Shown here: positions 40,896-61,251 of the stretch, one piece after another
How the letters are laid out: the number at the start of each line of letters is the position of its first letter
Position numbering within the stretch: position 1 is the first letter of the stretch
Source of the DNA: a virus
DNA: 64,000 nt
Strand: one strand, 5' to 3'
Virus record (IMG/VR): IMGVR_UViG_3300032335_000935
Location: 4,090 to 68,089 of that record
Program-made: the position numbers and the translations under genes
Notes under the pieces: generated by a model
Database searches by the model: none
What the model was told of the DNA's origin: nothing
The model's input: only the letters and a program-made list of their open reading frames with translations

Positions 40896-40963
40896 TGGCT
40901 CACTCTGGCGATTCTCAGGAGTCCAAATCCATGGGATCTGGGGTTCGATTCCCTGAGGGCCAG
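40896..40963 (+). tRNA. tRNA-like, unclassified (possible TCC loop)
   Basis: acceptor tggctca/agggcca (6/7) + CCA, T-arm tgggg-ttcgatt-ccctg. Confidence 0.35.
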
Positions 40964-40975
40964 CCACATACATGC

Positions 40976-41004
40976 TTGACCACAATTTGTGGTCAGTGTA
41001 TAAT
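40976..41004 (+). promoter_or_regulatory. sigma70-like promoter TTGACC-N17-TATAAT immediately upstream of tRNA-Pro(GGG)
   Basis: ttgacc 40976-40981, tataat 40999-41004. Confidence 0.55.
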
Positions 41005-41008
41005 CAAA

Positions 41009-41082
41009 CTCTGTATAGCGCAGCCCGGTAGCGCACTAGTCTGGGGGACTAGGGGTCGCAGGTTCGAACCCTGCTACAGAGA
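41009..41082 (+). tRNA. tRNA-Pro (GGG)
   Basis: acceptor ctctgta/tacagag, D gcgc/gcgc, anticodon ctagt/actag loop ctGGGgg, T-arm gcagg-ttcgaac-cctgc, CCA. Confidence 0.75.
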
Positions 41083-41090
41083 CCAACTAT

Positions 41091-41170
41091 GCCCAGGTGG
41101 CGGAATAGGTAGACGCACCGGACTCAAAATCCGGCGGGAAACCGTGAGGGTTCGAGTCCCTCCCTGGGCA
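41091..41170 (+). tRNA. tRNA-Leu (CAA), type II
   Basis: acceptor gcccagg/cctgggc, D gcggaataggtagacgc, anticodon ccgga/tccgg loop ctCAAaa, long variable arm, T-arm gaggg-ttcgagt-ccctc, CCA. Confidence 0.8.
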
Positions 41171-41195
41171 CCAACTAAATATAGTAGGGCAACAC

Positions 41196-41666
41196 ATGAA
41201 AAAGCTCAATCTTGACGAAGTCAAGGCCTTTATTGAGGCACAAACACCGGAAACCAAAATCTACCTTGGTTGCGACTCAGAACGACTCCGCATCGACGGT
41301 CGTTGGTACGCTGACTATGTGTTGGCCATTGTGGTGCACATCAACGGCAACAACGGCTGCAAACTGTTTGGCGAAGTACAGCGCGAACCGGTATGGGACG
41401 CCAAGCCTGGCAAGCCTGCTATGCGACTCATGACCGAAGTCTACAAGGTTTCAGAACTGTACCTCAAGCTGGCCGAAGTGCTTGAGGGTCGTGAAGTAGA
41501 AGTGCACTTGGACATCAACCCCGACGAACACTATGGCTCAAGCTGTGTGATTTCACAGGCCATTGGCTATATCAAAGGCACTTGCAACGTGGTTCCGTTT
41601 GTGAAGCCCCGTGCTTTTGCTGCCAGCTATGCCGCTGACCGATTCAAAGGTCTCCGGGCTGCCTAA
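41196..41666 (+). CDS. hypothetical protein (156 aa)
   Basis: ORF track. Confidence 0.45.
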   Translation: MKKLNLDEVKAFIEAQTPETKIYLGCDSERLRIDGRWYADYVLAIVVHINGNNGCKLFGEVQREPVWDAKPGKPAMRLMTEVYKVSELYLKLAEVLEGREVEVHLDINPDEHYGSSCVISQAIGYIKGTCNVVPFVKPRAFAASYAADRFKGLRAA

Positions 41667-42006
41667 GCCACTGCACAAGCAAGTTAACCAAAATTGCTTG
41701 CTTGTACAGCGACAATGCTGTACAATTGTTTTTGTCAACACAGTGTTGTGTTGACCGGTGAAGCAAAAGGTAGATGAGGACAGGCATAACATTTTAGCCT
41801 TCAAAGCTGAAATGACTCAAACTTGGCTTCCGGGCTAACCCCCGGGTCGTACTTGTGTGCTCTGGATCTAACATATCAGACTTGTGATTTGCTGCCAGAC
41901 ATATACAGGTCACTGTGCTTTGCATGTTGTGACTTGCTGTTTGCATGTTGTTCAGTCTGTTACTTGATCTTTTGCGGATCCGTCTTTTTGTTTTTTTGAA
42001 TGGAGA

Positions 42007-42579
42007 ATGCTCGTGAATATTTCTTTGCGCAAAGCCAATGCCCTGCAGAACAGCATCCTGGATGCTATCCGTGGCCTGGCCGTGACCCCAGTGGTCAGCC
42101 TTAACGAATTCCAAGACGCCGAGCAAGAGATTGCTGCCGTGCGTACCACTGTGTTGGATCAACTCAACACTCGTCGCTATCTCTACAATGCCTTGTACGA
42201 AATCCGTCAGGCAGTGAGTGTAGCCAATCACCGTGTGGGCATCGATGCTCGCTTGGCCGAAGTAGCCCACACCGACAAGTTGGTGCAGGTGTACCAAAGT
42301 CTGGCCGATGGCAAGGCTCGTGATGCCGCTGCTGTGGTGGCTGGCAAGTTGGAGAGACTACGATCGCGTGTAGAAAGCAGCCGCTTGTATGCGTTTGAAA
42401 GCACTGTAGAAACTTCAGCATTGAGCCAAGAAGATCTTGACAGCTTTCGTCGGGAAGTGGCTCAGCTCAAGAAGGCCAAGCAAAAGGTTCAGGACGAAAT
42501 CCTGGAACTCAACGTGCGCACTGAAATCACTCTCAGTGACAGCACTCGAGCTGTGTTGACCAGCCAAGGCCTGGTGTAA
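42007..42579 (+). CDS. hypothetical coiled-coil-like protein
   Basis: RBS GGAGA before ATG 42007. Confidence 0.4.
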   Translation: MLVNISLRKANALQNSILDAIRGLAVTPVVSLNEFQDAEQEIAAVRTTVLDQLNTRRYLYNALYEIRQAVSVANHRVGIDARLAEVAHTDKLVQVYQSLADGKARDAAAVVAGKLERLRSRVESSRLYAFESTVETSALSQEDLDSFRREVAQLKKAKQKVQDEILELNVRTEITLSDSTRAVLTSQGLV

Positions 42580-42618
42580 TCACTGTCCGGGTGAGATTCC
42601 CGGACTAGACAATGTCAT

Positions 42619-42691
<73 letters not shown>

Positions 42692-42695
42692 CCAC

Positions 42696-43400
42696 TTAAC
42701 CACGAACCTGGGCTAGGCCCAGAGTCTTCAATAGGTGAATGTAAACCCAGCCAATGTCTAGTTCGTACCAGCGACAACTGAATCGAGCACTGGCTCCGTT
42801 GCCGTGATGATTGTTGTGTAGTTCTTCTCCGCCAATCCAGATGCCAATAGGCAAGAGATTGCGACTGGTGTCTTGCACAGCATAGTTTCGATATCCCCAC
42901 CAGTGTGCTAGGCCATTGATTACACCAGCAGCCCAGAACGGAATCCAGATCATTTGTATGAGCCAGATCACTGGTCCCCACCAGCCAAACATCAAGGTGT
43001 TGAACACAAAGAGAAGGCCAATGCCAAGGGTAGGTCTAGCACTGTATAAGTGAAGCTCCACCCAATCAGTAGGACAACCGCGACCAAGTGCAGTGACCAT
43101 GTCACTATCTTGTTTTGCTTTGACATATAAGAATGCTCCCCCAAACAACACTTTCCAGATACCGTGAATTTTTGGGCTGTGTGGATCACGGTCTGTGTCA
43201 CTGGCCTGATGATGTCGTCGATGTACTGCTACCCATTCGCGTGTGATCATGCCTGTTGTGAGCCATAACCAAAAACGAAAAAAGTGTGCAATCACAGGAT
43301 GAAACTCCACGCTGCGATGTGCTTGGCTGCGGTGTAGATACAGCGTCACAGCCATTATGGTGATGTGTGTGGCCACCAACAAATAAATAATTTCAGTCAT
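42696..43400 (-). CDS. membrane fatty-acid (acyl-lipid) desaturase
   Basis: TM helices plus His boxes HRSQAH, HRRHH, HNNHH in canonical order. Confidence 0.85.
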   Translation of the reverse strand: MTEIIYLLVATHITIMAVTLYLHRSQAHRSVEFHPVIAHFFRFWLWLTTGMITREWVAVHRRHHQASDTDRDPHSPKIHGIWKVLFGGAFLYVKAKQDSDMVTALGRGCPTDWVELHLYSARPTLGIGLLFVFNTLMFGWWGPVIWLIQMIWIPFWAAGVINGLAHWWGYRNYAVQDTSRNLLPIGIWIGGEELHNNHHGNGASARFSCRWYELDIGWVYIHLLKTLGLAQVRG

Positions 43401-43419
43401 ATATTACTTATCAAAATCT

Positions 43420-43491
43420 CGGGCCTTAGTTCAATGGATAGAATGCGATGCTTCGAACTTCGAGATGTGGGTTCGATTCCTGCAGGCCCGG
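43420..43491 (+). tRNA. tRNA-Arg (TCG)
   Basis: acceptor cgggcct/aggcccg, D gttc/gaat, anticodon cgatg/cttcg (4/5) loop ctTCGaa, T-arm gtggg-ttcgatt-cctgc, CCA. Confidence 0.6.
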
Positions 43492-43498
43492 CCATGTC

Positions 43499-44125
43499 AT
43501 GAATATCTGTGTGTTTGGTGGCGGTGGCACGTTGGGCCAATTTGGTCCTGACTTCTGCCAACGTGCCACCGGCGACGGCCACAACGTTTACACCATATCT
43601 CACACAGATCGCCCTACCAGCATCACTGCCAACTTTGACAACACCGCAGATGTGGTTCACAAGTTTGAATCTGTGGCCAGCAAAGTGACCTTGGATCTAG
43701 TGATATACAATACCACAGCATCTGGGTACCCTGATCAACCCAATTGTTTTGCCGCTGATCATGAATACCAAGAACAACACTGGCTAGACAGTGTGAGAAT
43801 CCATGCTGCAATTCCGCATGCTGTGGCTCTAAAGTCCATGCAATACATGCAGCCTGGCAGCGCCATGGTGTTCATGACTTCGGGGATTTCCTGGGAACAT
43901 GATCGTAGCTACAGCACCTGGGCTGCCGGGTATGCTGGCGGCAAATCCATGCAAAATCATCTCATGTTGGCCTTGGCCCAACACAACGACCGCGGCATGA
44001 TCTTTACATCCATTGCACCGCACTTTACTCCCCAAACCTATCCCAACATTTTTGAAAAAATTTATCAGCATGTCATGGCCATTGACCAACAACACAGCGG
44101 TCAAATCCTAAGATTTTGGAATTAG
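43499..44125 (+). CDS. short-chain dehydrogenase/reductase-like NAD(P)-binding protein
   Basis: MNICVFGGGGTLGQ Rossmann motif; start trimmed to avoid tRNA overlap. Confidence 0.65.
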   Translation: MNICVFGGGGTLGQFGPDFCQRATGDGHNVYTISHTDRPTSITANFDNTADVVHKFESVASKVTLDLVIYNTTASGYPDQPNCFAADHEYQEQHWLDSVRIHAAIPHAVALKSMQYMQPGSAMVFMTSGISWEHDRSYSTWAAGYAGGKSMQNHLMLALAQHNDRGMIFTSIAPHFTPQTYPNIFEKIYQHVMAIDQQHSGQILRFWN

Positions 44126-44198
44126 CTCGCCATAGTTCAACTGGATAGAACCACTGCCTCCTAAGCAGTAGATCCAGGTTCAAGTCCTGGTGGCGAGA
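44126..44198 (+). tRNA. tRNA-Arg (CCT)
   Basis: acceptor ctcgcca/tggcgag, D gttc/gaac, anticodon actgc/gcagt loop ctCCTaa, T-arm ccagg-ttcaagt-cctgg, CCA. Confidence 0.8.
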
Positions 44199-44336
44199 CC
44201 ATTGACAAAAGCAATTATCAACATAAAAATAATTTCAGTAGAAACCATGAGATTCTCTTGATTTCCATGATACATACTGTTACAATACATGCACAGTGGC
44301 AAACACTGAACCATTTCATTTTTAACAGGAGATAAT

Positions 44337-46928: not shown

Positions 46929-47189
46929 ATGAACACCCAAGATGACAGCACTCTCCGACTCACCAGCGAATTAGCTGTGGCACAAATTGGTAACCGATAT
47001 GACACTGTGTTGGTGGCCGCACAACGACTGCGCGAACTGCGTCGTGGTGATGCAGCCTTGGTACCTTGCCGTGAAGGCAAAGTAACCACAGTGTTGAAAG
47101 AAATTGAACAGGGACTGGTAGGGCGCGAATACCTGTTGAAGAATCATGGTCGCGAACATCGCAGCCATAAACATCAAGGAACAAAATGA
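46929..47189 (+). CDS. rpoZ: RNA polymerase omega subunit-like protein
   Basis: [31 protein letters not shown]...[12 protein letters not shown] closely follows RpoZ core (IGNRFDLVLVAARRARQ...PLVP...A..EI..G). Confidence 0.65.
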
Positions 47190-48475
47190 CCGATTATCGA
47201 GTAAGAGACATTGAACTAGCGGCCTGGGGTCGCCGTGAAATAGCCATTGCCGAGCACGAAATGCCTGGGCTCATGGCTGTGCGTGAACAATATCGCGACA
47301 GCAAGCCTCTCAAAGGCGCCAAAATTGCTGGTAGTTTGCACATGACTATTCAAACCGCAGTGCTGGTAGAAACCTTAATAGATCTGGGTGCTGAGGTACG
47401 CTGGAGTTCATGCAACATTTTCTCTACTCAGGACCATGCTGCCGCAGCCTTGGCTGCTCGTGGCATTCCAGTATTTGCTTGGAAGGGCGAAACTGAAGAA
47501 GAATACTGGTGGTGCATTGCTCAAACGGTTGAAGGCCCCAACAACTGGCAGCCCAACATGCTGTTGGACGACGGGCATGATCTCACTGCCTATGTGCACG
47601 ACCAGCGTCCAGAACTCTTGCCCGGTATCATTGGGGTAACAGAAGAAACCACCACTGGTATTCACAAACTCTTGGAACGTGTGCGAGCAGGCACTCTTGC
47701 CTTGCCAGCTATCAATGTCAACGATTCAGTGACCAAGACCAAGTTTGACAATCTTTACGGCTGTCGCGAAAGTCTTGTGGATGCCATCAAGCGAGCCACT
47801 GACGTCATGATTGCTGGCAAAGTTGCTGTGGTAGCCGGTTATGGCGATGTGGGCAAAGGATCAGCCCAGGCCTTGCGAGCACTGAGTGCCCAGGTGTGGA
47901 TCACCGAAGTTGATCCTATCTGTGCTCTGCAAGCGGCCATGGAAGGCTATCGCGTGGTAGACATGAACGAAGCCTGTAGAGTAGCCGACATTTTTGTCAC
48001 AGCCACTGGCAACATCAACGTGATTACCAAACAGCACATGTTGCAGATGAAAGAAAATGCCATTGTGTGCAACATTGGTCACTTTGACAGTGAGATTGAC
48101 ATTGCTGGCATTCAAGATGCTGAGTGGACCGAAGTAAAGCCCCTGGTGGACCAAGTCAAACTCAGCAATGGTCGCACCATTATTGTGTTGGCCAAGGGTC
48201 GCTTGGTTAACCTAGGCTGCGGAACTGGCCATCCCAGTTTCGTGATGTCAAACTCTTTCACCAATCAGGTATTGGCACAGATTGAACTGTACACCAATTA
48301 CTGGCAATATCAGCGCGGTCAACTGTATCTATTGCCCAAGCACATTGATGAACATGTGGCACGTCTGCATCTTGCCAAGATTGGTGCAACATTAACCACA
48401 CTGACCGAACAGCAGGCCAACTACATCAGTGTGCCGGTACAAGGCCCGTTCAAGGGCGATGGCTACCGTTATTGA
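47186..48475 (+). CDS. ahcY: S-adenosyl-L-homocysteine hydrolase
   Basis: [31 protein letters not shown]-terminus, NAD-binding GYGDVGKG, 429 aa. Confidence 0.92.
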
Positions 48476-49320: not shown

Positions 49321-49800
49321 ATGCCTTGGATTGAAAACGTCGCAGCCGCCGACATTCCCTTGCGGTTTCATCACGAAGCCGGTGCCAACTCAATGCTGAT
49401 CCAGATCATGGATCCCGCACCTAGCTGGTGGCCCACCCCGGCTCATGAGTTCCGGGAGACTCATCGTTTTGAGTTCTTGGACGCCGAAGATGCTGATGGT
49501 TTTTCCGAAGAGGCCAAAATTTCAGATGCTCAAGCCGCAGAAATTGTGGGTTTGCTCCAGCATGCCTTGGCCAATCGCATGAATGTGGTTGTGCACTGCT
49601 ATGCAGGCCTGTGCCGTTCGGGTGCTGTGGCCGAAGTTGGCGTGATGATGGGCTTTGACGACACTGAGCGTACTCGCATACCCAACCTCCGTGTAAAGCA
49701 CAAGCTGATGCGGCAGTTGGGCTGGACTTACGACAGCACTGAAAAGCCCTACGATCATGCCAATGATTGGAGGAATGGCACCATGGGATGGGAGCGATAA
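49321..49800 (+). CDS. Cys-based protein/RNA phosphatase (dual-specificity PTP fold)
   Basis: VVVHCYAGLCRSG = HCx5R(S/T) P-loop. Confidence 0.7.
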   Translation: MPWIENVAAADIPLRFHHEAGANSMLIQIMDPAPSWWPTPAHEFRETHRFEFLDAEDADGFSEEAKISDAQAAEIVGLLQHALANRMNVVVHCYAGLCRSGAVAEVGVMMGFDDTERTRIPNLRVKHKLMRQLGWTYDSTEKPYDHANDWRNGTMGWER

Positions 49801-50267
49801 TGCCACGTTGTTATCAATTGGTGGGAGTTCCGGGTTCGGGCAAAAGCACCTGGGTCCAGAATCAAATATGGGCATTGGGCTTGACCATAGTTTCTACTGA
49901 TGCGTTTGTGGAAGATTATGCAAGAGCACAAGGCAAGACTTATTCTGAAGTGTTTGCGGATTACATGCCCACAGCAGTTGATCTTATGAGCAAAGTTGTT
50001 GTTCATGCTCGAGAACACGGTCATGATATCATTTGGGATCAAACCAGTACCACTGTGGCCAGCCGTGCCAAGAAGTTCCGTATGTTGCCCAACTATGAAC
50101 ATATTGCTGTGGTGTTTCGAACACCTGAGCATACAGAACTCATGCGTCGATTGATGAGCCGCCCTGGCAAAGAGATTCCGGATCATGTCATAGCCAGCAT
50201 GATTGCAAGTTGGGAAGAACCAACCCAAGAAGAAGGCTTTGCAGAAATTTGGATGGCTCAAAACTAA
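49800..50267 (+). CDS. P-loop kinase (AAA_33 / polynucleotide-kinase-like)
   Basis: GVPGSGKST Walker A near N-terminus; TAATG overlap start. Confidence 0.55.
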   Translation: MPRCYQLVGVPGSGKSTWVQNQIWALGLTIVSTDAFVEDYARAQGKTYSEVFADYMPTAVDLMSKVVVHAREHGHDIIWDQTSTTVASRAKKFRMLPNYEHIAVVFRTPEHTELMRRLMSRPGKEIPDHVIASMIASWEEPTQEEGFAEIWMAQN

Positions 50268-50280
50268 TACTTTTTGCTAG

Positions 50281-50309
50281 TTGACCAAATATTGCCAATC
50301 TGCTATAAT
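50281..50309 (+). promoter_or_regulatory. sigma70-like promoter TTGACC-N17-TGcTATAAT
   Basis: ttgacc 50281-50286, tataat 50304-50309. Confidence 0.6.
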
Positions 50310-50333
50310 TAGATATTGAACAAGGAGGCAGAT

Positions 50334-50939
50334 ATGCCAGCAACATTTTTGGTAAGCGACACACATTTTGGCCATGCCGGCGTGTGTCGCTTCACCCACC
50401 CCGATGATGCCACTGTGAAGTTGCGCCCCTGGGACGATCCTGATGAGATGGACGAGGAAATGGTTCGTCGTTGGAACGACCGTGTGCGTCCGTCAGACAA
50501 GGTGTACCATTTGGGCGATGTTGTGATCAACCGCAAGGCCTTGCGCACATTGCATCGCTTGAACGGTGACAAGGTGTTGATCCGTGGTAACCACGACATC
50601 TTCCGTGATGACGAGTACCGCACCTACTTCCGTGAACTTCGTGCGTATCATGTCATGAACGGAATGATCCTTAGCCATATCCCGGTGCACGAGGCATCGT
50701 TGGGTCGCTTTGGTGTTAACATTCACGGACACTTGCACGCCAGTCGTGTCAAGCGGGCACGTGGCATTGACGCTCGCACCGGTACTGTGCTCTACGGCAA
50801 CGACAACGACACTCGATACCACTGTGTGTGCGTGGAACAGACTGATTTTGCCCCGATCTTGTTGGAAGATGTTTACCAGCGTATTCGCAACGAGGGCGGC
50901 GAAATTGGATTCCGTAACGGCAACGGTCCTACTATGTAG
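50334..50939 (+). CDS. calcineurin-like metallophosphoesterase
   Basis: LVSDTHFGH, LGDVV, GNHD, GHLH motif series; RBS AAGGAGG. Confidence 0.75.
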   Translation: MPATFLVSDTHFGHAGVCRFTHPDDATVKLRPWDDPDEMDEEMVRRWNDRVRPSDKVYHLGDVVINRKALRTLHRLNGDKVLIRGNHDIFRDDEYRTYFRELRAYHVMNGMILSHIPVHEASLGRFGVNIHGHLHASRVKRARGIDARTGTVLYGNDNDTRYHCVCVEQTDFAPILLEDVYQRIRNEGGEIGFRNGNGPTM

Positions 50940-50957
50940 TACTTGAGTACTACAAAA

Positions 50958-50986
50958 GCCCTGCAATTATGCGGGGCTTTTTTTGG
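50958..50986 (+). terminator. intrinsic terminator
   Basis: GC-rich hairpin agccc...gggct + ttttttt. Confidence 0.6.
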
Positions 50987-51015
50987 TTGACCAATTATTC
51001 CCGTTTTGCTATAAT
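50987..51015 (+). promoter_or_regulatory. sigma70-like promoter TTGACC-N17-TGcTATAAT
   Basis: ttgacc 50987-50992, tataat 51010-51015. Confidence 0.6.
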
Positions 51016-51045
51016 ATGGATATAGTGAACAACAAGGAGCCCAGC

Positions 51046-51276
51046 ATGGCATACACCGTGATTGCAGACCGTTTTGAAACAGATCTCATGCGGCAAAAAT
51101 ATGGCCCGCGCAAAGGCCTGGAAGGCCCGTTCCGCTATGCTTCGGGTCGTGTGCTGTACTACGATGTCAAAGAAGGTCGGTACTACGATCCCACCACAGA
51201 CTTCTATGTCAGTGACGAGGAAATGGCCCAGGAACATGCCATTTTGGTTCGTCGACTGGTAGATCACGCAAGGTAA
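51046..51276 (+). CDS. hypothetical small protein
   Basis: RBS AAGGAG before ATG 51046. Confidence 0.35.
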   Translation: MAYTVIADRFETDLMRQKYGPRKGLEGPFRYASGRVLYYDVKEGRYYDPTTDFYVSDEEMAQEHAILVRRLVDHAR

Positions 51277-51281
51277 CACCA

Positions 51282-51761
51282 TTGCTTTATTTTGCCTATG
51301 GCATGAACACTAACGTTGACGGCATGGCCCGGCGCTGTCCTCGGGCAGTGAGTTTTGGCCGCGCTCGGCTGTTGGGCCATCGTTTTAGATTTGCTGGACC
51401 AGCCGACGTTCAACGAGATCGTCGCTTCAACGTAGACGGTGTTCTGTGGGATATCACTGATCAGTGCCTGGCTTCGTTGGACCGATTGGAAGGTTATCCT
51501 TTCTACTATGATCGCAAGTGGGCCCGGGTTCAGTATCAAGATCAAATAGTTCAAGCCTTGGTATACTTTATGTTACCCGGACACGGCAATGGTGCACCCG
51601 GCTTTGACTATTTTGACATGGTGTTGCAAGGATACAACGAACATGGTGTGCCCACACATCAACTGTGGCACAATTACAACAGTAAATCAACAAATTGTGA
51701 GTTGACCAATAATTCTCAATTTGCTACAATAGAAGCTGTAAACAACAAGGAGTCACAATGA
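51282..51761 (+). CDS. gamma-glutamyl cyclotransferase-like (AIG2/GGCT fold) protein; apparent TTG start
   Basis: N-terminal LYFAYGMNTN and downstream RL.GY pattern typical of GGCT. Confidence 0.55.
   Translation: MLYFAYGMNTNVDGMARRCPRAVSFGRARLLGHRFRFAGPADVQRDRRFNVDGVLWDITDQCLASLDRLEGYPFYYDRKWARVQYQDQIVQALVYFMLPGHGNGAPGFDYFDMVLQGYNEHGVPTHQLWHNYNSKSTNCELTNNSQFATIEAVNNKESQ
51702..51730 (+). promoter_or_regulatory. sigma70-like promoter TTGACC-N17-TGcTACAAT
   Basis: ttgacc 51702-51707, tacaat 51725-51730. Confidence 0.5.
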
Positions 51762-51980
51762 GCAAGATGAGCGAACTGGTACTAGACATCGAGTACCTCA
51801 TGAACAAAGGTCTCAGCTTCGTTGAGATCGCCCGTGAGCTGGAGATTCCTGTACACTTTGTGGTCGAAGCCGCTGGCTCCCAAGATCTTGAAGAATTCAG
51901 CCCGCATGTGACTGTGAACAGTTGACACATATTTCGTAACCCTGTAAAATACAGACTCTTTAACACTGAAGGACAAGCCC

Positions 51981-53066
51981 ATGTCAGATACTCGCACCGT
52001 GACTTCGCAACAAGCTCGCAAGTCTATTCTCAAAGCATTTCAAGCCAAGCGTCCCTTGTTTTTGTGGGGTCCTCCCGGTATCGGTAAGTCTGAACTGGTG
52101 GAAGGCATCACTGCCGAGCTGAGCGGCTTCATGATTGACCTGCGACTGGGTCAGATGGAGCCCACTGACATTCGTGGCATCCCTTTCTACAACAAGGACA
52201 CCGGCAAGATGGACTGGGCTCCCCCTGTAGAACTGCCCGATGAGGAAACTGCCAGCCAGTATCCCATTGTGGTGCTGTTCTTGGACGAGTTGAACTCGGC
52301 TCCGGCTTCGGTGCAATCGGCTGCATATCAGCTGATCTTGAACCGTCGTGTGGGCAAGTATCGACTGCCTGACAATGTTGTCATGGTGGCTGCTGGTAAC
52401 CGTGAATCGGACAAAGGTGTTACTTACCGCATGCCGACTCCATTGGCAAACCGTTTTATCCACCAAGAGATGAAGGTGGACTTTGCTAGCTGGCAAGAGT
52501 GGGCTGTGATGAATCGTATCCACAAAGACGTGGTGGGTTATTTGAGCTTTGCCAAGCAAGACTTGTACGACTTTGATGCCAAGAGTGCCAGCCGTGCTTT
52601 TGCTACTCCGCGTTCGTGGACCTTTGTGAGCCAGCTCTTGAGCGATGGCACCGCAGACGACGACACTGTGACCAACCTTGTGGCTGGTACTGTGGGCGAA
52701 GGTCTTGCTGTGAAGTTCATGGCTCACCGCAAGGTGGCAGGTCGCATGCCGGACCCTGTGGACATCTTGAAGGGCAAGGTCAAGGATCTCAATGTCAAGG
52801 AAGTGTCGGCTATGTACAGCTTGGTGATTTCCATGTGCTATGAGCTCAAGGCTGCTGTGGAGAACAAGACCCCGGACAAGGAGTTCCATGAAATGGCTGA
52901 TAACTTCCTGGGTTACATGATGAAGAACTTTGAGACCGAGCTCACTGTGATGGGTGCCCGGATTGCGCTGACCACTTATGATCTGCCCTTCCTGCCCACC
53001 AAGATGAAGAACTTTGACGAGTTCCACAATCGCTTTGGCAAGTATATCCTGGCCGCTCAGGCCTAA
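51981..53066 (+). CDS. MoxR-family AAA+ ATPase
   Basis: LFLWGPPGIGKS Walker A, VVLFLDELN Walker B, AAA_5-like length. Confidence 0.85.
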   Translation: MSDTRTVTSQQARKSILKAFQAKRPLFLWGPPGIGKSELVEGITAELSGFMIDLRLGQMEPTDIRGIPFYNKDTGKMDWAPPVELPDEETASQYPIVVLFLDELNSAPASVQSAAYQLILNRRVGKYRLPDNVVMVAAGNRESDKGVTYRMPTPLANRFIHQEMKVDFASWQEWAVMNRIHKDVVGYLSFAKQDLYDFDAKSASRAFATPRSWTFVSQLLSDGTADDDTVTNLVAGTVGEGLAVKFMAHRKVAGRMPDPVDILKGKVKDLNVKEVSAMYSLVISMCYELKAAVENKTPDKEFHEMADNFLGYMMKNFETELTVMGARIALTTYDLPFLPTKMKNFDEFHNRFGKYILAAQA

Positions 53067-53070
53067 CTTG

Positions 53071-53118
53071 CGGGCTGTGCACCACTCAACATGGGCTGTG
53101 GTGCACAGCCCTTTTTTA
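53071..53118 (+). terminator. intrinsic terminator (14-bp perfect stem + T-run)
   Basis: gggctgtgcaccac ... gtggtgcacagccc tttttt. Confidence 0.75.
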
Positions 53119-53125
53119 TTGATCG

Positions 53126-53455
53126 ATGAAATACAAAATCATCAAAATGGATGGTAGGTACACCCGATATGGTTATCTGTACCTAGTAGAGTTCAAAAAA
53201 GACATTGGTCGCGGCACCGGTGTGTTGGACTTTGACCGTTGCCGACGTTGGTTTAACCAACAGTTTGGTTGGAGTCAAGACGTTGAAACTCGAGATCAAA
53301 TGAAACGCAACAAAGTGGCCAATCAAGAGGCCTATCAAGAAGATGACATCAATCCCACATGGGCCTATGCTGTCAAATACGGCGACTATCGCATCTATAT
53401 CGACAGCGACAAAACACTGAGTTGGTTTGTGCTATGCCACCCCGCATCACCGTAA
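53126..53455 (+). CDS. hypothetical protein
   Basis: ORF track. Confidence 0.4.
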   Translation: MKYKIIKMDGRYTRYGYLYLVEFKKDIGRGTGVLDFDRCRRWFNQQFGWSQDVETRDQMKRNKVANQEAYQEDDINPTWAYAVKYGDYRIYIDSDKTLSWFVLCHPASP

Positions 53456-53718
53456 AAAAGAATCTCATCATATTTCACCGGCCTGGTGAGTGGTCAGACG
53501 TGTACGCAAAGATCTTGTCCCAACACGGTATGGGCATGGCCATACGTCCCAAGTTAAAACGCGAGTTGGGGTTTACATATCGTTATCACCGGGGCCTGGC
53601 GCCAGTGGACCACCCAACACCCAATGGTCCCAGCATGCACTACGAAGACCAGGTTCATTTGGATTTTTACAGTGAAAGTGCCCAGAGTTGGTTCCAGCTC
53701 AAGTACCTAAATTTGTAG
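53434..53718 (+). CDS. hypothetical protein
   Basis: in-frame ATG within 53359 ORF. Confidence 0.3.
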   Translation: MPPRITVKKNLIIFHRPGEWSDVYAKILSQHGMGMAIRPKLKRELGFTYRYHRGLAPVDHPTPNGPSMHYEDQVHLDFYSESAQSWFQLKYLNL

Positions 53719-53753
53719 TACTAAAGTGTTGCAAAAATACCACACTTTTTTGG

Positions 53754-53782
53754 TTGACCAATAAATCACGCCGTGCTATAAT
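53754..53782 (+). promoter_or_regulatory. sigma70-like promoter TTGACC-N17-TGcTATAAT; vWA gene ATG 7 nt after -10 (leaderless?)
   Basis: ttgacc 53754-53759, tataat 53777-53782. Confidence 0.6.
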
Positions 53783-53788
53783 ACTGAC

Positions 53789-55126
53789 ATGACGCAACAA
53801 AGGACTCGCATGCAATATTTCAACCCCCGTGTGCTACATGCTCGTGCCACTGGCACCACTGCTGACACCAAAGACAAAGACAAGTTCAAGGACCTGATTG
53901 GTCCCATGGATCCTGCACTGGATCGCAAGGTGCGTGAGAAACTGATCACTGCTCGCGTGGGCCTCTTGCTCCGCGCCAGCTTCTTTGGCAACCTTGCTAC
54001 TCGACTCAAACTGGTCAACGCTGACGAGTGGTGCGGTACTGCCGCAACAGACGGGCGCCACTTCTACTACAATAGCCGCTTTATTGAGATGCTTCGTCCC
54101 AAAGAGATTGAGTTTCTTTTTGGGCATGAAGTGCTTCACTGTGTGTACGATCACTTTGGACGCCGTGGCGAGCGCGATCCGCAGATTTGGAACATTGCCA
54201 ATGATTTCTGCGTCAACGCAGACCTTGTCAAGCACCGTGTGGGCGAGAAGATTACCACAGTGCCTTGTTTACATGACACCAAGTATGATGGCATGAGCTC
54301 GGAAGAGATCTATGACCAGCTCATGCAGAATGTGCAAAAGATCAGCCTGCAAGATCTCATTGACAAGATGCTGGACGAGCACTTGGATGGCGAGGGCGAT
54401 GGTGACGGCTCTGGCGATGGTGAGGACAAAGAAGGCAAAGGTCGTCCGCGACTGAGCGAAGCCGAAAAGCAACAGATCCGTGACGAGATCAAAGAAGCCA
54501 TGTTGGCTGCGGCTCAAACTGTGGACGGTGCTGGTAACATTCCGGCAGGCGTCAAGCGGTTGATTCAGGACCTAACTGAGCCCAAGATGAACTGGCGTGA
54601 ACTGCTTCGTATGCAGTTGGAGAGCACCATCAAGTCAGACTACACTTGGATGCGAGCCAGCCGACGCGGTTGGCACATGGATGCTGTGATGCCGGGCATG
54701 CAGACCGAGCCCATGATTGACATTGCAGTGGCCATTGACGCTTCGGGCTCGATTGGCGAGAAGATGCTGAAAGACTTCCTCAGCGAAATCCAAGGCATCA
54801 TGGACTCGTTCCCGGCCTATCGTATTCATGTGATCACGTTTGATACTGAATGCTACAATCCAGCACAGTACAATTCGGACAACTTGGATTCCATGTGCGA
54901 CTACGAAGTGTCAGGTGGCGGCGGTACTGACTTCACTGCCATCTTCCGATACCTCAAGGACGAAGAGATTGAGCCCAAGCGCCTGGTGGTGTTCACAGAC
55001 GGCTACCCGTTTGGTTCATGGGGTGATGAGAACTACTGCGATACAGTGTGGATCCTGCATGGTACCACTAGCATTGTGCCACCCTGGGGTCAATATGCTT
55101 ACTATGACGAGGACAAAAACAAATGA
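53789..55126 (+). CDS. vWA-domain protein with N-terminal HExxH putative metallopeptidase-like domain (MoxR partner)
   Basis: FGHEVLHCVYDH (HExxH), DIAVAIDASGSIG (MIDAS DxSxS), acidic linker. Confidence 0.8.
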   Translation: MTQQRTRMQYFNPRVLHARATGTTADTKDKDKFKDLIGPMDPALDRKVREKLITARVGLLLRASFFGNLATRLKLVNADEWCGTAATDGRHFYYNSRFIEMLRPKEIEFLFGHEVLHCVYDHFGRRGERDPQIWNIANDFCVNADLVKHRVGEKITTVPCLHDTKYDGMSSEEIYDQLMQNVQKISLQDLIDKMLDEHLDGEGDGDGSGDGEDKEGKGRPRLSEAEKQQIRDEIKEAMLAAAQTVDGAGNIPAGVKRLIQDLTEPKMNWRELLRMQLESTIKSDYTWMRASRRGWHMDAVMPGMQTEPMIDIAVAIDASGSIGEKMLKDFLSEIQGIMDSFPAYRIHVITFDTECYNPAQYNSDNLDSMCDYEVSGGGGTDFTAIFRYLKDEEIEPKRLVVFTDGYPFGSWGDENYCDTVWILHGTTSIVPPWGQYAYYDEDKNK

Positions 55127-55299
55127 TTAGATACGTTTTGATTTTTGCAGTGCTCACAGCACTGATCTATGTCGGCATCCATGGTTGGAGATTGTTGTCC
55201 AATTTAGACAAATGGACCGTGATCAAGACATTGACCTTGAGTGTGCTGTGTGCTACAATTGCTTTCGCTGTGTTGACCACTATAGTGGTGCTTTTTTAA
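55123..55299 (+). CDS. hypothetical two-TM small membrane protein (58 aa)
   Basis: ATGA coupling to vWA gene. Confidence 0.3.
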   Translation: MIRYVLIFAVLTALIYVGIHGWRLLSNLDKWTVIKTLTLSVLCATIAFAVLTTIVVLF

Positions 55300-55309
55300 A
55301 GGAATTAAA

Positions 55310-56104
55310 ATGAAACGTTTTGTAACTCTTGGACTTGTTGCCGCGGCTGTACTGGCCACCGGTTGTACTCGCATTGAAACTGGCGAGGTAGGTGTGCGTG
55401 TGGGTTTTGACAAACAGGTTCAACCTGGTGAACTGTTGCCGGGTAGCTTTAACCAAACCATCATTGGCGAGGTCTTGACCTTCCCCATCAAGGATGTCAA
55501 CGTACAGTTGAACGACATGACTCCTGTGGCCAAAGACAACTCGACCATGAAAGACTTCGATGCTGTGGTTGTTTACAACATCAATCCACAGCAAGTGGCC
55601 GAACTATATAGCACCAAGAACAAAGCCTTCCATGCTGAGTTTAAAGGTGACACTTATGTGATGTACAACTACATCGTGCAGAATGCTCGCAATGCCATCT
55701 ACAAGGCAGCTCGCAAGTACGAAGCTCTAGACATGGCCGACGCTCGTAGCGACATGGAGAATTTCATCAAGGACGAGATTATTCGCAACCTTGCAGAAGA
55801 AAAACTGGATGGTACCATCATGATCAGCCAGGTGCTGATTCGTAATGTTGTGCCAGCAGACTCGGTTGTGGAGAGTGCCAACGCCCTGGTTCGTAGCAAG
55901 AACGAACTCAAGCAAAAGGAAGTTGAAGTACAAACAGCCCAGGCCGAAAGCCGTCGTATGGCAGCATTGGCCAACAACTCAGGTGCAAGTATTGCATTCA
56001 TGCAGGCACAGGCCATGCTCAACATCTCAGAAGGTATCAAGAACGGACAAGTTCAAACCATTGTAGTGCCTTCAAACTTCAATGCACTCATGATGCCCAA
56101 ATAA
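55310..56104 (+). CDS. SPFH/band-7 (stomatin/prohibitin/HflC-like) lipoprotein
   Basis: lipobox LATGC after signal peptide; SPFH core followed by coiled-coil KQKEVEVQTAQAESRRMAAL; RBS GGAATTAAAATG. Confidence 0.75.
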   Translation: MKRFVTLGLVAAAVLATGCTRIETGEVGVRVGFDKQVQPGELLPGSFNQTIIGEVLTFPIKDVNVQLNDMTPVAKDNSTMKDFDAVVVYNINPQQVAELYSTKNKAFHAEFKGDTYVMYNYIVQNARNAIYKAARKYEALDMADARSDMENFIKDEIIRNLAEEKLDGTIMISQVLIRNVVPADSVVESANALVRSKNELKQKEVEVQTAQAESRRMAALANNSGASIAFMQAQAMLNISEGIKNGQVQTIVVPSNFNALMMPK

Positions 56105-56105
56105 C

Positions 56106-56342
56106 ATGTATAAAAGTATCTACACCGAAGTTGAGGTGGATGTCAATCTGTCAGACTTTGACACGGATGACTTGATTGAGGAACTGGAAAGCCGCGGTCT
56201 GGACTACAACACCAATGGCGTAGACGGCGACGACATGCGGGCACTGTTGGAACAGATCTGGGTCAAACGCAGAAACGGCAACCCTGATTATCAACATGAA
56301 CTAGACGCACTGATCTGGGGTGTGCTGGGGCGAGTGATATGA
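56106..56342 (+). CDS. hypothetical acidic protein
   Basis: ORF track. Confidence 0.35.
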   Translation: MYKSIYTEVEVDVNLSDFDTDDLIEELESRGLDYNTNGVDGDDMRALLEQIWVKRRNGNPDYQHELDALIWGVLGRVI

Positions 56343-57647: not shown

Positions 57648-57939
57648 TGACTTTCTTGATCGTTGGGAACACATCATTAACGAAGTCAGCATGACTGAGG
57701 TTCCTCTGGAGTGCCTAAAAAAGGTTATTATCAAGCTAGAGGGTCGGCGACAGCGCACTATCAATCTTGCACTGTTGCGACGTCAAGGCTTGGATGGTGA
57801 CGAGATGGAGGCTGTGTTGACCCGAGCATTGTTGGAACTAGGCGATGCTGTGGTAGACATGGACTTTGTGGTAGACATTGGTGCTGTGGCCGAGTTGGTT
57901 CAGCCTGAAACAGACAAAATTTTACATAATCTCAAATGA
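57634..57939 (+). CDS. hypothetical protein
   Basis: ATGA coupling both ends. Confidence 0.35.
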   Translation: MPFSDDFLDRWEHIINEVSMTEVPLECLKKVIIKLEGRRQRTINLALLRRQGLDGDEMEAVLTRALLELGDAVVDMDFVVDIGAVAELVQPETDKILHNLK

Positions 57940-58628
57940 ATGTACGCCTGGTATCCCACAGTCAACCCACCGCAGAATTTGCAAAATTGGGCATCACAGA
58001 TGCACAAGAACTCATTGCGTATTGCGCCCGTGTGTCCAATCCAGCCAACCAATTCAACACTGAAACAAGCAATAGACTCATACAGTACCTGGTCAAGCAC
58101 CAACACTGGAGTCCACTGGAAATGGTCTCTGCCTGCATGGAAATTGTCACCACCCGCGACATTGCGCGACAGATTCTACGTCACAGAAGTTTCAGCTTTC
58201 AAGAGTTCTCCCAGCGATATGCTGATCCTACAGCTGAACTCGATGAGGCGTTTGTGCTACGTGAGGCACGATTCCAAGACACCCGGAATCGACAAAACAG
58301 CGTAGACTTTGACATGTCGGATGAACAGCAACGTTTGTTGTCCTACGAATGGGAACGTGCTCAGAAACGTGTGTTGTACGCTGTGAAAAAAGAATACCAG
58401 TGGGCTATCGACAATGGCATTGCTAAAGAACAAGCTCGGGCTGTGTTGCCCGAAGGACTCACTGTGAGTCGCATGTACATGAACGGTACATTGCGTTCAT
58501 GGATTCACTACATCGAACTACGTGCGGCAAATGGAACACAACGAGAACATATGGAAATTGCACGAGCCTGTGCACAGGCCATTACAGCAATTTTTCCAAT
58601 GGTTTCAGACTTAGTTGCACAATCATAA
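57936..58628 (+). CDS. thyX: flavin-dependent thymidylate synthase
   Basis: ILRHRSFSFQEFSQRY = ThyX RHRx7S motif. Confidence 0.9.
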   Translation: MNVRLVSHSQPTAEFAKLGITDAQELIAYCARVSNPANQFNTETSNRLIQYLVKHQHWSPLEMVSACMEIVTTRDIARQILRHRSFSFQEFSQRYADPTAELDEAFVLREARFQDTRNRQNSVDFDMSDEQQRLLSYEWERAQKRVLYAVKKEYQWAIDNGIAKEQARAVLPEGLTVSRMYMNGTLRSWIHYIELRAANGTQREHMEIARACAQAITAIFPMVSDLVAQS

Positions 58629-58981: not shown

Positions 58982-59235
58982 AATACGTTGATGTGGAAGT
59001 CGTCCTCCCACCTCCTGTAAAGAAAAAGGTATGGGACGGAGAGAAGTTTGTGCCCATGGTGCTTTACAAACATCAAGCCTTGAACATTCAACAGATTGAC
59101 TGGCTTCGTGACACTTTTGGCACACCTGGCAATCATGGCAAAAGTTGTTATTGGGAGTCCAGTCGTAGTGGTAATTATGTAATTATGGATGAACAAATTT
59201 ATACCTGGTTTCAAATGAAATGGAGCAAGCAATGA
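58960..59235 (+). CDS. hypothetical protein
   Basis: ORF track. Confidence 0.3.
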   Translation: MGWTQQIEYVDVEVVLPPPVKKKVWDGEKFVPMVLYKHQALNIQQIDWLRDTFGTPGNHGKSCYWESSRSGNYVIMDEQIYTWFQMKWSKQ

Positions 59236-60203
59236 GCAAATTTTTGGTAACAGGCGGGCATGGCCTAATAGGGCACAATGTGGTGGCTCAACTGCAAGCT
59301 CGCGAAGAGACTGTGGCAGTGATTGATAATCATACCACCTATGGTATCATTCCCCAAACAGAGATTGATTACTTGATCAGTGAGCGACTCAAGAAGATCA
59401 GTGATCACACATACTACAATCAGTGTATCACAGACGGTTATGAGATTGATCACATTGTGGAAAAAGAAAAGCCCAAGGTAATCATTCACTGTGCCAGCTT
59501 CCCTAGACAAAAAGTAGTCAATGCCAACCCTGCACATGGTGCTGATGTCATGATGCGTGGGTTGATCAATCTGTTGGAGAGTGCCAAACGCCACGGTGTT
59601 GAACGTTTTGTTTACATCAGTAGCAGCATGGTATACGGAGACTTTGCGGATCAAGTTTTGGAAGAAGACGAATGTCGCCCGCAAGGACAGTATGGCGTCA
59701 TGAAACTGGCAGGAGAGTGGCTTGTTAAAGACTATGCTCGTCGAACTGGTATGGAATACGTTGTTATCCGCCCGTCAGCGGTATACGGTCCTTTGGACGT
59801 GGAGGATCGTGTTGTGGCAAAGTTTATGCTCACCGCGATGCGTAGTGGTGTTCTACGAGTCAACGGAGCCAACGAAACTCTTGACTTTACCTATGTTGAT
59901 GATGCTGCGGCAGGCATTGTTGCGGCGGCGACTAGAATCATGTCTAGAAACAATACTTACAACATCACCAAATCGCATTCCGTTAGCCTGCTTGAAGCCG
60001 CAGAAAAAATAGTAGCACTGGTTGGACGAGGAACTATAGAAGTTCAGGACAGGGATCAAGACTTCCCCAGTCGAGGTGCATTAAATATAGATCGTGCTCG
60101 TACCATTCTTGGTTACGATCCCAAAGTAGATGTTGATGAGGGTTTCCGTGCCTACTACGACTGGCTTGACAATTCCGTTTACTGGTCTCCGAAAACAGTA
60201 TAA
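59232..60203 (+). CDS. NAD-dependent epimerase/dehydratase (SDR-extended)
   Basis: LVTGGHGLIGHNV Rossmann, YGVMKLAGE (YxxxK). Confidence 0.75.
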   Translation: MSKFLVTGGHGLIGHNVVAQLQAREETVAVIDNHTTYGIIPQTEIDYLISERLKKISDHTYYNQCITDGYEIDHIVEKEKPKVIIHCASFPRQKVVNANPAHGADVMMRGLINLLESAKRHGVERFVYISSSMVYGDFADQVLEEDECRPQGQYGVMKLAGEWLVKDYARRTGMEYVVIRPSAVYGPLDVEDRVVAKFMLTAMRSGVLRVNGANETLDFTYVDDAAAGIVAAATRIMSRNNTYNITKSHSVSLLEAAEKIVALVGRGTIEVQDRDQDFPSRGALNIDRARTILGYDPKVDVDEGFRAYYDWLDNSVYWSPKTV

Positions 60204-61251
60204 CGCACTGCGCGACGAGATCCTGAGTGCTACCGACGAGGTTCTGCGTTCAGGATCTCTCATGAACAGCAACAACACTGCAGAATTTGAGCATTGGCTG
60301 GCCCGAAAAAATCGTGTGAGTTATGCAGTGACTTGCCATTCAGGTACTCAGGCCTTGGAAATCATTGCTGAATACTATCGCCAACAACTGTCTTTGGTCA
60401 ATCCTCGGGTGTTCATGCCCAGTTTTACCTATGCAGCCACAGCCAATGCATTTATACGAGCTGGGTGGGAACTGTACTTCATTGATACTGATGCATATGG
60501 TATCATTGACGATCAAAAATTCCCCCCGCTGGTAGAGTACGATGCTGTGGTGTTGGTAGGTCTGTATGGCAACTCAATTACTCACAGTGCACATGTACGA
60601 TCTTGGAATCAGTGGGTGGCTGCCAGTACCATTGTGATTGAAGATGCTGCACAACACTGGTTGGCCAACGATTGCCAACGCATCGGCGATGCTGCGGCCA
60701 TCAGTTTTGATCCTATGAAGAACCTGCCTTGTTACGGCAATGGCGGTGCAGTGGTTACTGATCGCCAGGATCTTGCAGAATTTGCTAGATCCTGGCGAGA
60801 CAATGGCAAACCCAATCATGGGTTCGCTGGCACCAACAGTCGCATGAGCGAAGTGGATTGTGCCCAAATGTTGGTCAAGACTCAACACATTGACCGCTGG
60901 CAGGCCCGTCGGGCTCAAATTGCTGCTTTTTGGTGCGACCGCTTGAGCCAGGCCAATCTGCGCTGTTTAATAGATGATCGCAACTCACACAATCATGCGT
61001 TTCACAAATTTGTAATTGATGTTGATCATCGAGATCAGTTGCGTCAACGACTTGGTGAACGCAAAATTGAGACTCGTGTGCACTACGAACGACCCATACA
61101 CGAGATTGACGTGTACCGGGCCTGGCCCGGTCCCGACATGTTGGCCGCCAGCAGCAGTCTGGCTCGTAGAGTGCTGAGTTTACCTCTCTATCCTGAACTC
61201 ACTGACTTGGAAGTTGAGTACATCACGGATCAGGTACTAGACCTCGTTTGA
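60130..61251 (+). CDS. DegT/DnrJ/EryC1/StrS-family PLP-dependent sugar aminotransferase
   Basis: LRKQYNALRDEILSATDEVLRSG N-terminal pattern, HSGTQALE, FDPMKNL (Lys), 74-nt out-of-frame overlap with upstream epimerase. Confidence 0.75.
   Translation: MLMRVSVPTTTGLTIPFTGLRKQYNALRDEILSATDEVLRSGSLMNSNNTAEFEHWLARKNRVSYAVTCHSGTQALEIIAEYYRQQLSLVNPRVFMPSFTYAATANAFIRAGWELYFIDTDAYGIIDDQKFPPLVEYDAVVLVGLYGNSITHSAHVRSWNQWVAASTIVIEDAAQHWLANDCQRIGDAAAISFDPMKNLPCYGNGGAVVTDRQDLAEFARSWRDNGKPNHGFAGTNSRMSEVDCAQMLVKTQHIDRWQARRAQIAAFWCDRLSQANLRCLIDDRNSHNHAFHKFVIDVDHRDQLRQRLGERKIETRVHYERPIHEIDVYRAWPGPDMLAASSSLARRVLSLPLYPELTDLEVEYITDQVLDLV

Follow-up and report, generated by a model that had tools for sequence, protein, structure and literature searches.

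Positions 51981 to 56342 of the window analysed here, a 64,000-nucleotide stretch of viral DNA (positions 4,090 to 68,089 of IMG/VR record IMGVR_UViG_3300032335_000935), hold seven open reading frames (ORFs) of 361, 109, 119, 445, 58, 264 and 78 amino acids (aa), all on the plus strand. Our comparative analysis indicates that, on balance, this interval is probably made up of two independent units lying next to each other. One consists of a MoxR-class AAA+ ATPase and a DUF2201 protein that combines an N-terminal HExxH metallopeptidase-like domain with a von Willebrand factor A (vWA) domain, and would act as a counter-defence or host-takeover remodeller. The other consists of a 58-aa protein with two transmembrane (TM) segments, called TM58 below, and a lipoprotein with an SPFH (Band_7) domain, and would form a cassette that guards the envelope of the infected cell. 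All the genes named in a first-pass annotation of the sequence proved to be real, correctly placed and encoded on the plus strand; their identities, the conservation of their motifs, their linkage and their mobility were observed directly.

The division into two units was drawn from synteny. Eighty IMG/VR loci around relatives of the SPFH gene and 80 around relatives of the vWA gene were sampled, all ORFs of the window were mapped onto them, and the clustering of ORFs covered 81 SPFH loci. Of the 80 vWA loci, 2 have an SPFH gene at most 8 kb from the vWA gene, and about 10 of the 80 SPFH loci have a vWA gene near the SPFH gene, so that the linkage is missing in 78 and about 70 loci, respectively. 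About 37 kb separate the two genes on contig IMGVR_UViG_3300011335_000661, and relatives that have both often have other genes between them. Among cultured phages, PA5oct, Phosso and Bas52 possess the MoxR-vWA pair with no SPFH gene nearby, and in BUCT-ZZ01 and Vi01 the sequence retrieved around the SPFH cassette contains neither a MoxR nor a vWA gene. Furthermore, near-identical genomes differ by the presence of the cassette. L030 and L086 share 94–98% nucleotide identity on both sides of a site at which the former has a 1.3-kb block with TM58, SPFH and the 78-aa ORF (p78) and the latter has 184 nt; this difference sits exactly between the stop codon of the vWA gene and the next gene. The TM58 gene lies directly 5' of the SPFH gene in 77 of the 81 SPFH loci, while the flanks of the two genes otherwise vary over more than 20 contexts. 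TM58 and SPFH form an accessory, positionally mobile two-gene cassette.

These data bear on the model proposed in the first-pass annotation, which had joined MoxR, the vWA/HExxH protein, TM58 and SPFH into one module. In that model, the chaperone and peptidase would assemble or process an SPFH scaffold, and the scaffold in turn would be directed at the host's membrane protease quality control or serve as an egress platform. The arrangement in the window does invite such a reading, with four genes tightly packed on the same strand, a TM58 ATG that overlaps the vWA stop codon as ATGA, and an SPFH ORF that begins 10 nt after TM58. The same order is seen in about 10 related contigs, and in Acinetobacter phage XC38 the SPFH gene is located about 2.6 kb 5' of the MoxR-vWA pair. 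Because of the co-occurrence counts, the difference between L030 and L086, and the variety of flanking contexts, the single four-gene module is largely refuted, and the model as a whole is very improbable.

The MoxR-vWA pair belongs, together with p241, p101 and ThyX, to a stable backbone whose order is kept in nearly all of the 80 vWA loci, down to 51% identity. The assignment of its first gene to the MoxR AAA+ ATPases was borne out by several lines of evidence. Three Pfam models match above their cut-offs, all marginally (AAA_5 with 26.4 bits against 22, AAA with 27.3 against 21.2, and AAA_3 with 27.1 against 27), and the protein matches PHROG 1297 ('ATPase') from end to end at 2.8e-97. The Walker A residues G30, G33, K36 and S37, the Walker B residues D102 and E103, and the sensor-1 residue N140 are invariant in 15 diverse MoxR homologues, including those of PA5oct, Phosso and an N4-like Acinetobacter phage. 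A profile of these 15 sequences found the AAA domains of midasin as its best solved-structure match (2e-20). By analogy, the MoxR protein would be a hexameric ATPase.

The partner of this ATPase shows the domains in the predicted order, with DUF2201_N (PF13203) covering residues 50–294 (4.4e-40; 138.4 bits, cut-off 23.2) and DUF2201/VWA-like (PF09967) covering residues 312–436 (5.2e-18; 65.8 bits, cut-off 26.4). The HExxH motif region at residues 111–122 reads 'FGHEVLHCVYDH', and 16 diverse and 91 related vWA sequences all have H113, E114, H117 and H122 unchanged. In the same sequences, D317-x-S319-G-S321 and T380 of the metal-ion-dependent adhesion site (MIDAS) are invariant and D404 is conserved in at least 90%; the MIDAS, which the first-pass annotation had singled out for checking, is complete. 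In profile comparisons of the family, the DxSGS MIDAS aligns to the MIDAS of the integrin alpha-X I-domain (5e-4), and the HExxH aligns to that of the minimal zincin selecase MJ1213 (7e-4). Judging by its motif, the HExxH domain may serve as a peptidase on target proteins. The Asp/Gly-rich linker is likewise present, at about residues 199–215. An AlphaFold2 model of the protein, computed from a shallow alignment (at least 81% identity), proved unusable, with a predicted local distance difference test score (pLDDT) of 45.

The DUF2201 metallopeptidase-vWA family is widely labelled 'HNH endonuclease' or 'homing endonuclease', as in PHROG 1314, the PA5oct group, 121Q and PBECO4. This label was rejected for the window protein, which matches only the DUF2201 and VWA families and no HNH Pfam model at E ≤ 0.01; since no HNH model matches, the label is best seen as a propagated mis-annotation. 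The main practical value of the present analysis lies in correcting this widespread PHROG 1314 label and the reading of the interval as a single module; no paradigm is changed.

The pair adds a member, from a new and uncultured lineage, to a phage family that had been described before. Iyer et al. (Viruses 2021; PMC7824862) described exactly this combination of MoxR and metallopeptidase-vWA proteins in group 2.2 jumbo phages and proposed that it acts as a virion-assembly chaperone and processing peptidase, by analogy with p618/p892 of the Acidianus two-tailed virus. The same two genes, with the HExxH N-terminal to the vWA domain, are found in Atu_ph07 (ASV44729/ASV44728, equivalent to PHROG 1297 and PHROG 1314), and the proteins of Atu_ph07, PA5oct, 121Q and Phosso are direct tblastn matches to the window pair at 36–48% identity. 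In contrast to the pair found in jumbo phages of group 2.2, the window genes are parted by two lineage-specific ORFs and a terminator-like hairpin. A search across families for a further small protein consistently encoded between the two genes showed that the ORFs in this position in the window, PA5oct, XC38 and Bas52 are unrelated. Searches of cultured phages with tblastn retrieved 853 and 813 records for the two proteins, with matching host distributions; the carriers include N4-like, V5-like and 121Q-like phages, PA5oct, Atu_ph07 and Campylobacter phages. Present in more than 800 sequenced phages, N4-like, V5-like and jumbo phages among them, MoxR plus metallopeptidase-vWA is one of the more widespread phage pairs that lack a mechanism.

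The combination of an AAA+ ring and a MIDAS adaptor is a logic shared with NorQ/NorD, CbbQ/CbbO, RavA/ViaA, CoxD/CoxE and midasin/Rea1. To our knowledge, the cellular MoxR partners NorD, CbbO, ViaA and CoxE possess no HExxH peptidase-like domain, and neither the targets nor the metal-insertion role of the cellular pairs can be transferred to the phage pair. From the analogy with NorQ/NorD, CbbQ/CbbO, RavA/ViaA and midasin, we infer a mechanism in which the vWA protein would use its MIDAS site to bind an acidic residue on a target protein, after which the ATPase hexamer would remodel the bound target and the HExxH domain would possibly cleave it. The pair was also considered as a bacterial defence system in its own right. 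This identity was rejected because the pair belongs to the phage backbone and no PADLOC model identifies the interval as such a system; the PADLOC defence models gave only weak matches at the level of the P-loop (IetA, 1e-4 over about 50 residues; PDC-M22A, 0.003). NCBIfam gave no meaningful match on the interval.

By analogy with homologues in V5-like coliphages, the MoxR-vWA pair would be a host-specific counter-defence or host-takeover remodeller rather than a general virion-assembly chaperone, a reading that we hold with moderate confidence. In a transposon screen of a V5-like (Vequintavirus) coliphage, the HIDEN-SEQ preprint (10.1101/2025.11.20.689424) reported that bas54_0063, the MoxR gene, is non-essential on K-12, where 60 of 64 TA sites were hit, while insertions fell to zero in the clinical isolate CFE311 (log2 fold change −7.23, q = 0). 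The knockout of this gene was sensitive to the predicted defence system DS-28 (10.1101/2025.11.20.689424). A table of the same preprint lists bas54_0055, the metallopeptidase-vWA gene, as non-essential (81 of 86 TA sites) and as depleted in CFE311 (log2 fold change −2.20, adjusted p 0.009), the latter undiscussed by its authors. Sheet 'Data S6' of supplementary file 9 is titled K-12 vs CFE303, whereas the logged command uses the '311' wig and its output is named Bas54_BW_311; the sheet is read here as the CFE311 comparison, in agreement with the main text of the preprint. The window proteins were compared with the orthologues of Bas52, which shares gene numbering, product names and gene lengths with Bas54. 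MoxR is 30% identical to bas52_0063 'MoxR ATPase' (E 5e-42) and the vWA protein 26% identical to bas52_0055 'putative metallopeptidase' (E 1e-45), both over the full length, and the pairwise alignment shows that the Bas52 metallopeptidase carries HExxH and a DxSGS MIDAS.

Counter-defence is favoured because the Bas54 homologues are dispensable on K-12 and depleted in CFE311, with the ATPase tied to DS-28. These homologues constitute the only genetic data found for the MoxR/metallopeptidase-vWA family, and the environmental lineage of the window is now tied to them, that is, to a conditional need in one E. coli isolate and a link to DS-28. The idea of an anti-defence device, which had been floated for the whole module, is thereby supported by the preprint data for the MoxR-vWA half only. 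Several points weigh against a counter-defence role. The conditional requirement comes from homologues in a preprint that are 26–30% identical to the window proteins, encoded in V5-like genomes seven genes apart on opposite strands, and the window proteins were matched to Bas52 and not to Bas54 itself. Depletion of the vWA partner in CFE311 is far weaker than that of the ATPase, and the second gene with a strong DS-28 effect in the preprint is unrelated (10.1101/2025.11.20.689424).

The virion-assembly role put forward by Iyer et al. (PMC7824862) also speaks against counter-defence, as does the record of PA5oct, which tags the ATPase 'ESI-MS/MS' and may mean that this protein was detected in particles. 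A virion-assembly chaperone with a built-in processing protease would draw on both points, the exact pair having been described and its role proposed for group 2.2 jumbo phages, as well as on the conservation of the pair as a backbone in many lineages. It is nevertheless unlikely, given that the Bas54 homologues take insertions throughout on K-12 and matter only in one clinical isolate. In addition, the neighbours of the pair in the window, in Phosso and in N4-like phages are nucleotide-metabolism and replication genes and not structural ones, and the sigma-70-like matches 5' of both genes give weak evidence for early expression.

In the second unit, the lipobox-anchored SPFH protein was recovered as described. 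The Band_7 profile (PF01145), the feature by which this identification had been left to stand or fall, is present at residues 21–213 (3.9e-17; 63.3 bits, cut-off 23.6), and the protein matches PHROG 200 at 8.6e-32. Its N-terminus is MKRFVTLGLVAAAVLATG-C19, with the lipobox L-A-T-G-C19. A lipobox occurs in 73 of 83 full-length representatives of the family, and an Asp after the Cys in 0 of those 73. The SPFH protein is accordingly predicted to be lipidated, as a substrate of Lgt/LspA, and to face the periplasm. An exhaustive phmmer search of 1.84 billion representatives returned about 335 clusters of the subfamily at 50% identity, 39 of them below 1e-30. Judged from their sequences, these proteins are a compact, lipoprotein-specific subfamily apart from canonical HflK/C, QmcA and flotillins. 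An identical SPFH protein was found on one 1.5-kb contig only.

A profile of seven phage members of the SPFH family found HflK as the best solved structure, at 3e-4 and over a partial match. The lipobox Cys and the 'TRIETGEVG' after it align to the point at which the TM helix of HflK ends, and because of this alignment the SPFH protein would share the periplasmic topology of HflK/C, a lipid anchor replacing the TM helix. The likeness to HflK/HflC extends to the SPFH fold, the periplasmic orientation and the membrane anchor immediately N-terminal to the SPFH domain. The differences are a length of 264 aa against 419 aa for HflK, a single gene with no K/C heteropair, and the lipid anchor. An identity as HflK or HflC proper was rejected on the lipobox Cys19 in place of the TM helix, the single SPFH gene and the partial match at 3e-4. 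Of the coiled-coil tail suggested for the protein, a helical tail is weakly supported. In profile alignments residues 143–216 match HflK and residues 151–244 match QmcA, in the coiled-coil region of these proteins, and a low-confidence AlphaFold2 model (pLDDT 42; shallow alignment of at least 81% identity) shows helices at 183–244 and a strand at 251–256. A segment 'IVVP' near the C-terminus is kept across phage families.

TM58 agrees with the small two-TM protein that had been described, with hydrophobic segments at residues 1–19 and 39–57 and a basic loop between them; it has no Pfam or PHROG match. A two-TM hairpin gene of 53–87 aa with a basic loop stands immediately 5' of the SPFH gene in five of six cultured phages (BUCT-ZZ01, XC38, Vi01, S-CREM1 and R2919, not AM24), and the SPFH proteins of five of these six, the window excluded, have the lipobox Cys. 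The recurrence of a two-TM gene with a lipobox SPFH in other phage families indicates that the TM58-SPFH unit is ancient and crosses families. A small two-TM gene was not found upstream of 14 bacterial SPFH homologues, which makes TM58 a phage-specific addition. The pairing of an SPFH gene with a small membrane-protein gene recalls the SPFH-NfeD operons (QmcA-YbbJ, YqiK-YqiJ, FloA/FloT with NfeD). In the window, by contrast, TM58 lies upstream of the SPFH gene, has no NfeD Pfam match and, at 58 aa, leaves no room for a soluble domain, and an identity as an NfeD partner was rejected for want of both homology and a soluble domain. The SPFH domains of the QmcA-YbbJ, YqiK-YqiJ and FloA/FloT systems also face the cytoplasm, whereas that of the window protein is predicted to face the periplasm. 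A spanin pair was rejected as well, given that TM58 has essentially no periplasmic domain and that the lipoprotein consists of a 245-aa SPFH domain.

SPFH lipoproteins of PHROG 200 are encoded by about 180 cultured phages, mostly Vi01-like Ackermannviridae, with Acinetobacter phages and cyanophages in addition. Those of Vi01-like phages, Acinetobacter phages, cyanophages and the Schitoviridae phage GIB1 belong to the same family as the window protein, with 25–47% identity, a lipobox and an upstream two-TM gene. The closest cellular relatives, identified in a scan of bacterial genomes, are chromosomal lipoproteins of Bdellovibrio and Bacteriovorax with 60–68% identity (cellular homologues, 56–73%), followed by Leptospiraceae and then two metagenome-assembled genomes (MAGs) of Burkholderiales. 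The window protein is nearer to these Bdellovibrionota lipoproteins than to most PHROG 200 members of cultured phages. In the Bdellovibrionota (Bdellovibrio chromosomes, Bacteriovorax and MAGs), the homologues occupy at least two chromosomal positions, among housekeeping-like genes. The novelty of these observations is modest: no earlier description was found of the conserved small-TM partner, of the positional mobility with presence and absence, or of the link to Bdellovibrionota. The reason for an SPFH gene in a phage genome 'remains unclear' according to one report (PMC13239085). For a gene that phage papers repeatedly flag as unexplained, a tiny two-TM partner that is almost always present, a movable cassette and a compact lipoprotein subfamily shared with Bdellovibrionota provide a concrete handle.

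The nucleotide identity of the SPFH gene between the window and L030 is about 77%, equal to that of the backbone, which argues that the cassette is old and under purifying selection and not a fresh insertion. A repeat, promoter or stem-loop was sought at the cassette boundaries, and only ribosome-binding-site-like k-mers and k-mers of neighbouring genes were common to them. It is scarcely credible that the cassette is a moron, functionally neutral cargo of recent bacterial origin that plays no part in infection: the closest cellular homologues are 56–73% identical and the cassette is dispensable between near-identical genomes, but the SPFH family has 5,319 matches, the top 120 with at least 89% protein identity against about 77% nucleotide identity between the window and L030, which points to long-term purifying selection, and the phage-specific TM58 is kept in 77 of the 81 loci and in four other phage lineages.

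For the function of the cassette, we infer a dispensable envelope factor that would guard or stabilise the envelope of the infected cell, for example by superinfection exclusion. TM58 would be an inner-membrane hairpin with its loop in the cytoplasm and both ends at the periplasmic face, an orientation suggested by the basic character of the loop. As a rule, SPFH proteins assemble into rings or cages at membrane surfaces, and the lipid-anchored SPFH protein would build an oligomeric lattice or cage on a periplasmic membrane face. Envelope guarding is provisionally ranked first, and an HflK/C-like effect on FtsH second, because the cassette is dispensable, stands among small membrane-protein genes and lies beside an exclusion gene in Vi01. 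In that phage it comes directly 3' of two genes, one of PHROG 1510 ('superinfection exclusion') and one for a small cell-wall-binding-like protein, and in relatives of the window the genes downstream often encode further small membrane proteins. In its broadest form, the proposal is a tentative one: TM58 and the lipoprotein SPFH may be a dedicated, hitherto undescribed two-component viral envelope system, whose periplasm-facing lattice or cage walls off part of the host envelope for superinfection exclusion or captures FtsH or another conserved envelope machine. Such a system would be used by Ackermannviridae, Acinetobacter phages, cyanophages and freshwater jumbo phages, with the SPFH protein exchanged with predatory Bdellovibrionota and the TM partner a phage invention.

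Envelope guarding has to be set against several observations. Purifying selection and a spread over very different hosts fit a generic target, such as the membrane or FtsH, better than receptor-specific exclusion. The missing Asp after the lipobox Cys suggests sorting to the outer membrane in enterobacteria, by which the SPFH protein would be parted from TM58 in the inner membrane. The AlphaFold2 models (pLDDT 42 for SPFH and 45 for vWA) leave both the cage and a contact between TM58 and SPFH unsupported by structure.

The alternative ranked second, a mimic of HflK/C, holds that a periplasmic SPFH cage on the inner membrane captures or shields the host FtsH, perhaps together with a phage BI-1/YccA-like protein, so that phage membrane proteins are protected or proteolysis is reprogrammed. 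HflK is the best profile match, its TM/SPFH junction aligns to the lipobox, the periplasmic topology is the same, and a universal FtsH would fit the spread across hosts. The window also encodes a BI-1/YccA-family protein with seven TM segments at 5014–5700 (Pfam Bax1-I 2e-47, no PHROG match). The first-pass annotation had invoked this protein beside the SPFH scaffold; its gene is confirmed in the window, but it lies 50 kb from the four genes. Both the mimicry and the purpose assigned to it are rather doubtful, as the match to HflK is weak (E 3e-4) and partial, there is one SPFH gene and no K/C pair, the absence of Asp after the lipobox Cys in all 73 proteins suggests outer-membrane sorting in enterobacteria, and the Bdellovibrionota homologues occur without TM58.

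Some further observations concern the surroundings of the cassette. In Vi01 (L165, 1598–2429), the cassette closes a run of small, envelope-directed genes: the PHROG 1510 gene comes first, followed by a gene whose 102-aa product resembles peptidoglycan-binding regions of endolysins and baseplate proteins, and then by the two-TM and SPFH genes. Proteins of another family, about 77 aa long, are encoded near the cassette at 38 of the 81 SPFH loci, frequently with two or three copies at a single locus; these may be multi-copy genes of hyperplastic regions, or may be linked to how such regions rearrange. The p78 protein of the window has no family match in Pfam or PHROG and occurs at 25 of the 81 SPFH loci, in varying positions.

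Table 1. Genes and sequence signals in and just upstream of the interval, in window coordinates.
Feature	Position	Strand	Evidence and remarks
Sigma-70-like promoter match, TTGACA-17-TAAAAT, 11/12	51922..51950	+	30 nt 5' of the MoxR start codon; consensus match only
MoxR-class AAA+ ATPase, 361 aa, PHROG 1297	51981..53066	+	Pfam, PHROG, motif conservation
Terminator-like GC-rich hairpin and T-run	53093..53111	+	Directly 3' of MoxR; 8-bp stem with 6 GC pairs, then TTTTTTATTG
Two small lineage-specific ORFs between MoxR and vWA	53126..53718	+	109 aa, 53126-53455; 119 aa, 53359-53718
Sigma-70-like promoter match, TTGACC-17-TATAAT with upstream TG, 11/12	53754..53782	+	Just 5' of the vWA gene
DUF2201 protein, 445 aa, PHROG 1314	53789..55126	+	HExxH domain ~50-294; vWA/MIDAS domain ~311-436
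TM58, 58-aa two-TM hairpin with basic loop	55123..55299	+	Conserved partner 5' of the SPFH gene
SPFH/Band_7 lipoprotein, 264 aa, PHROG 200	55310..56104	+	Lipobox LATG-C19; mature start C-TRIETGEVG
Acidic 78-aa protein (p78)	56106..56342	+	Frequent, not fixed, neighbour; outside the cassette core

Sigma-70-like sites in the region do not exceed the shuffled expectation in their total count. Public gene calls of the vWA gene (identical protein P0121, 438 aa) begin at Met8, position 53810, and translation may therefore not start at the first ATG, position 53789; either start is compatible with the promoter-like site upstream. The 109- and 119-aa ORFs have no family match in Pfam or PHROG and are conserved in close relatives only, and the true start of the 119-aa ORF is probably further downstream than listed. 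A megablast search of the region against cultured phages returned no match, and sensitive blastn returned short matches to the ATPase core only.

The window plainly belongs to a very large phage genome, given its 41 tRNA genes (24259–44201) and a transfer-messenger RNA (tmRNA) at 26221–26768, its auxiliary metabolic genes, and the related IMG/VR contigs, which number in the hundreds and reach about 380 kb. The tmRNA is asterisk-flagged by ARAGORN; its tag, ANDDVYALAA, might help to guess the host. So many tRNA genes together with a tmRNA are typical of very large phages. Auxiliary metabolic genes are abundant (7563–9575, 18678–20153 on the minus strand, 28617–29921, 47186–48475, 57936–58628 and 59220–61251). 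They include a B12-binding radical SAM enzyme, an asparagine-synthase-like amidotransferase, a subunit of a TctA-family transporter, S-adenosylhomocysteine hydrolase, ThyX, and an NAD-dependent sugar epimerase with a DegT-type aminotransferase. Directly 5' of MoxR, at 49321–51761, a run of small enzymes leads from a protein like dual-specificity phosphatases (below threshold) through a kinase-like P-loop protein (AAA_33) and a calcineurin-like phosphoesterase to a protein like gamma-glutamyl cyclotransferases.

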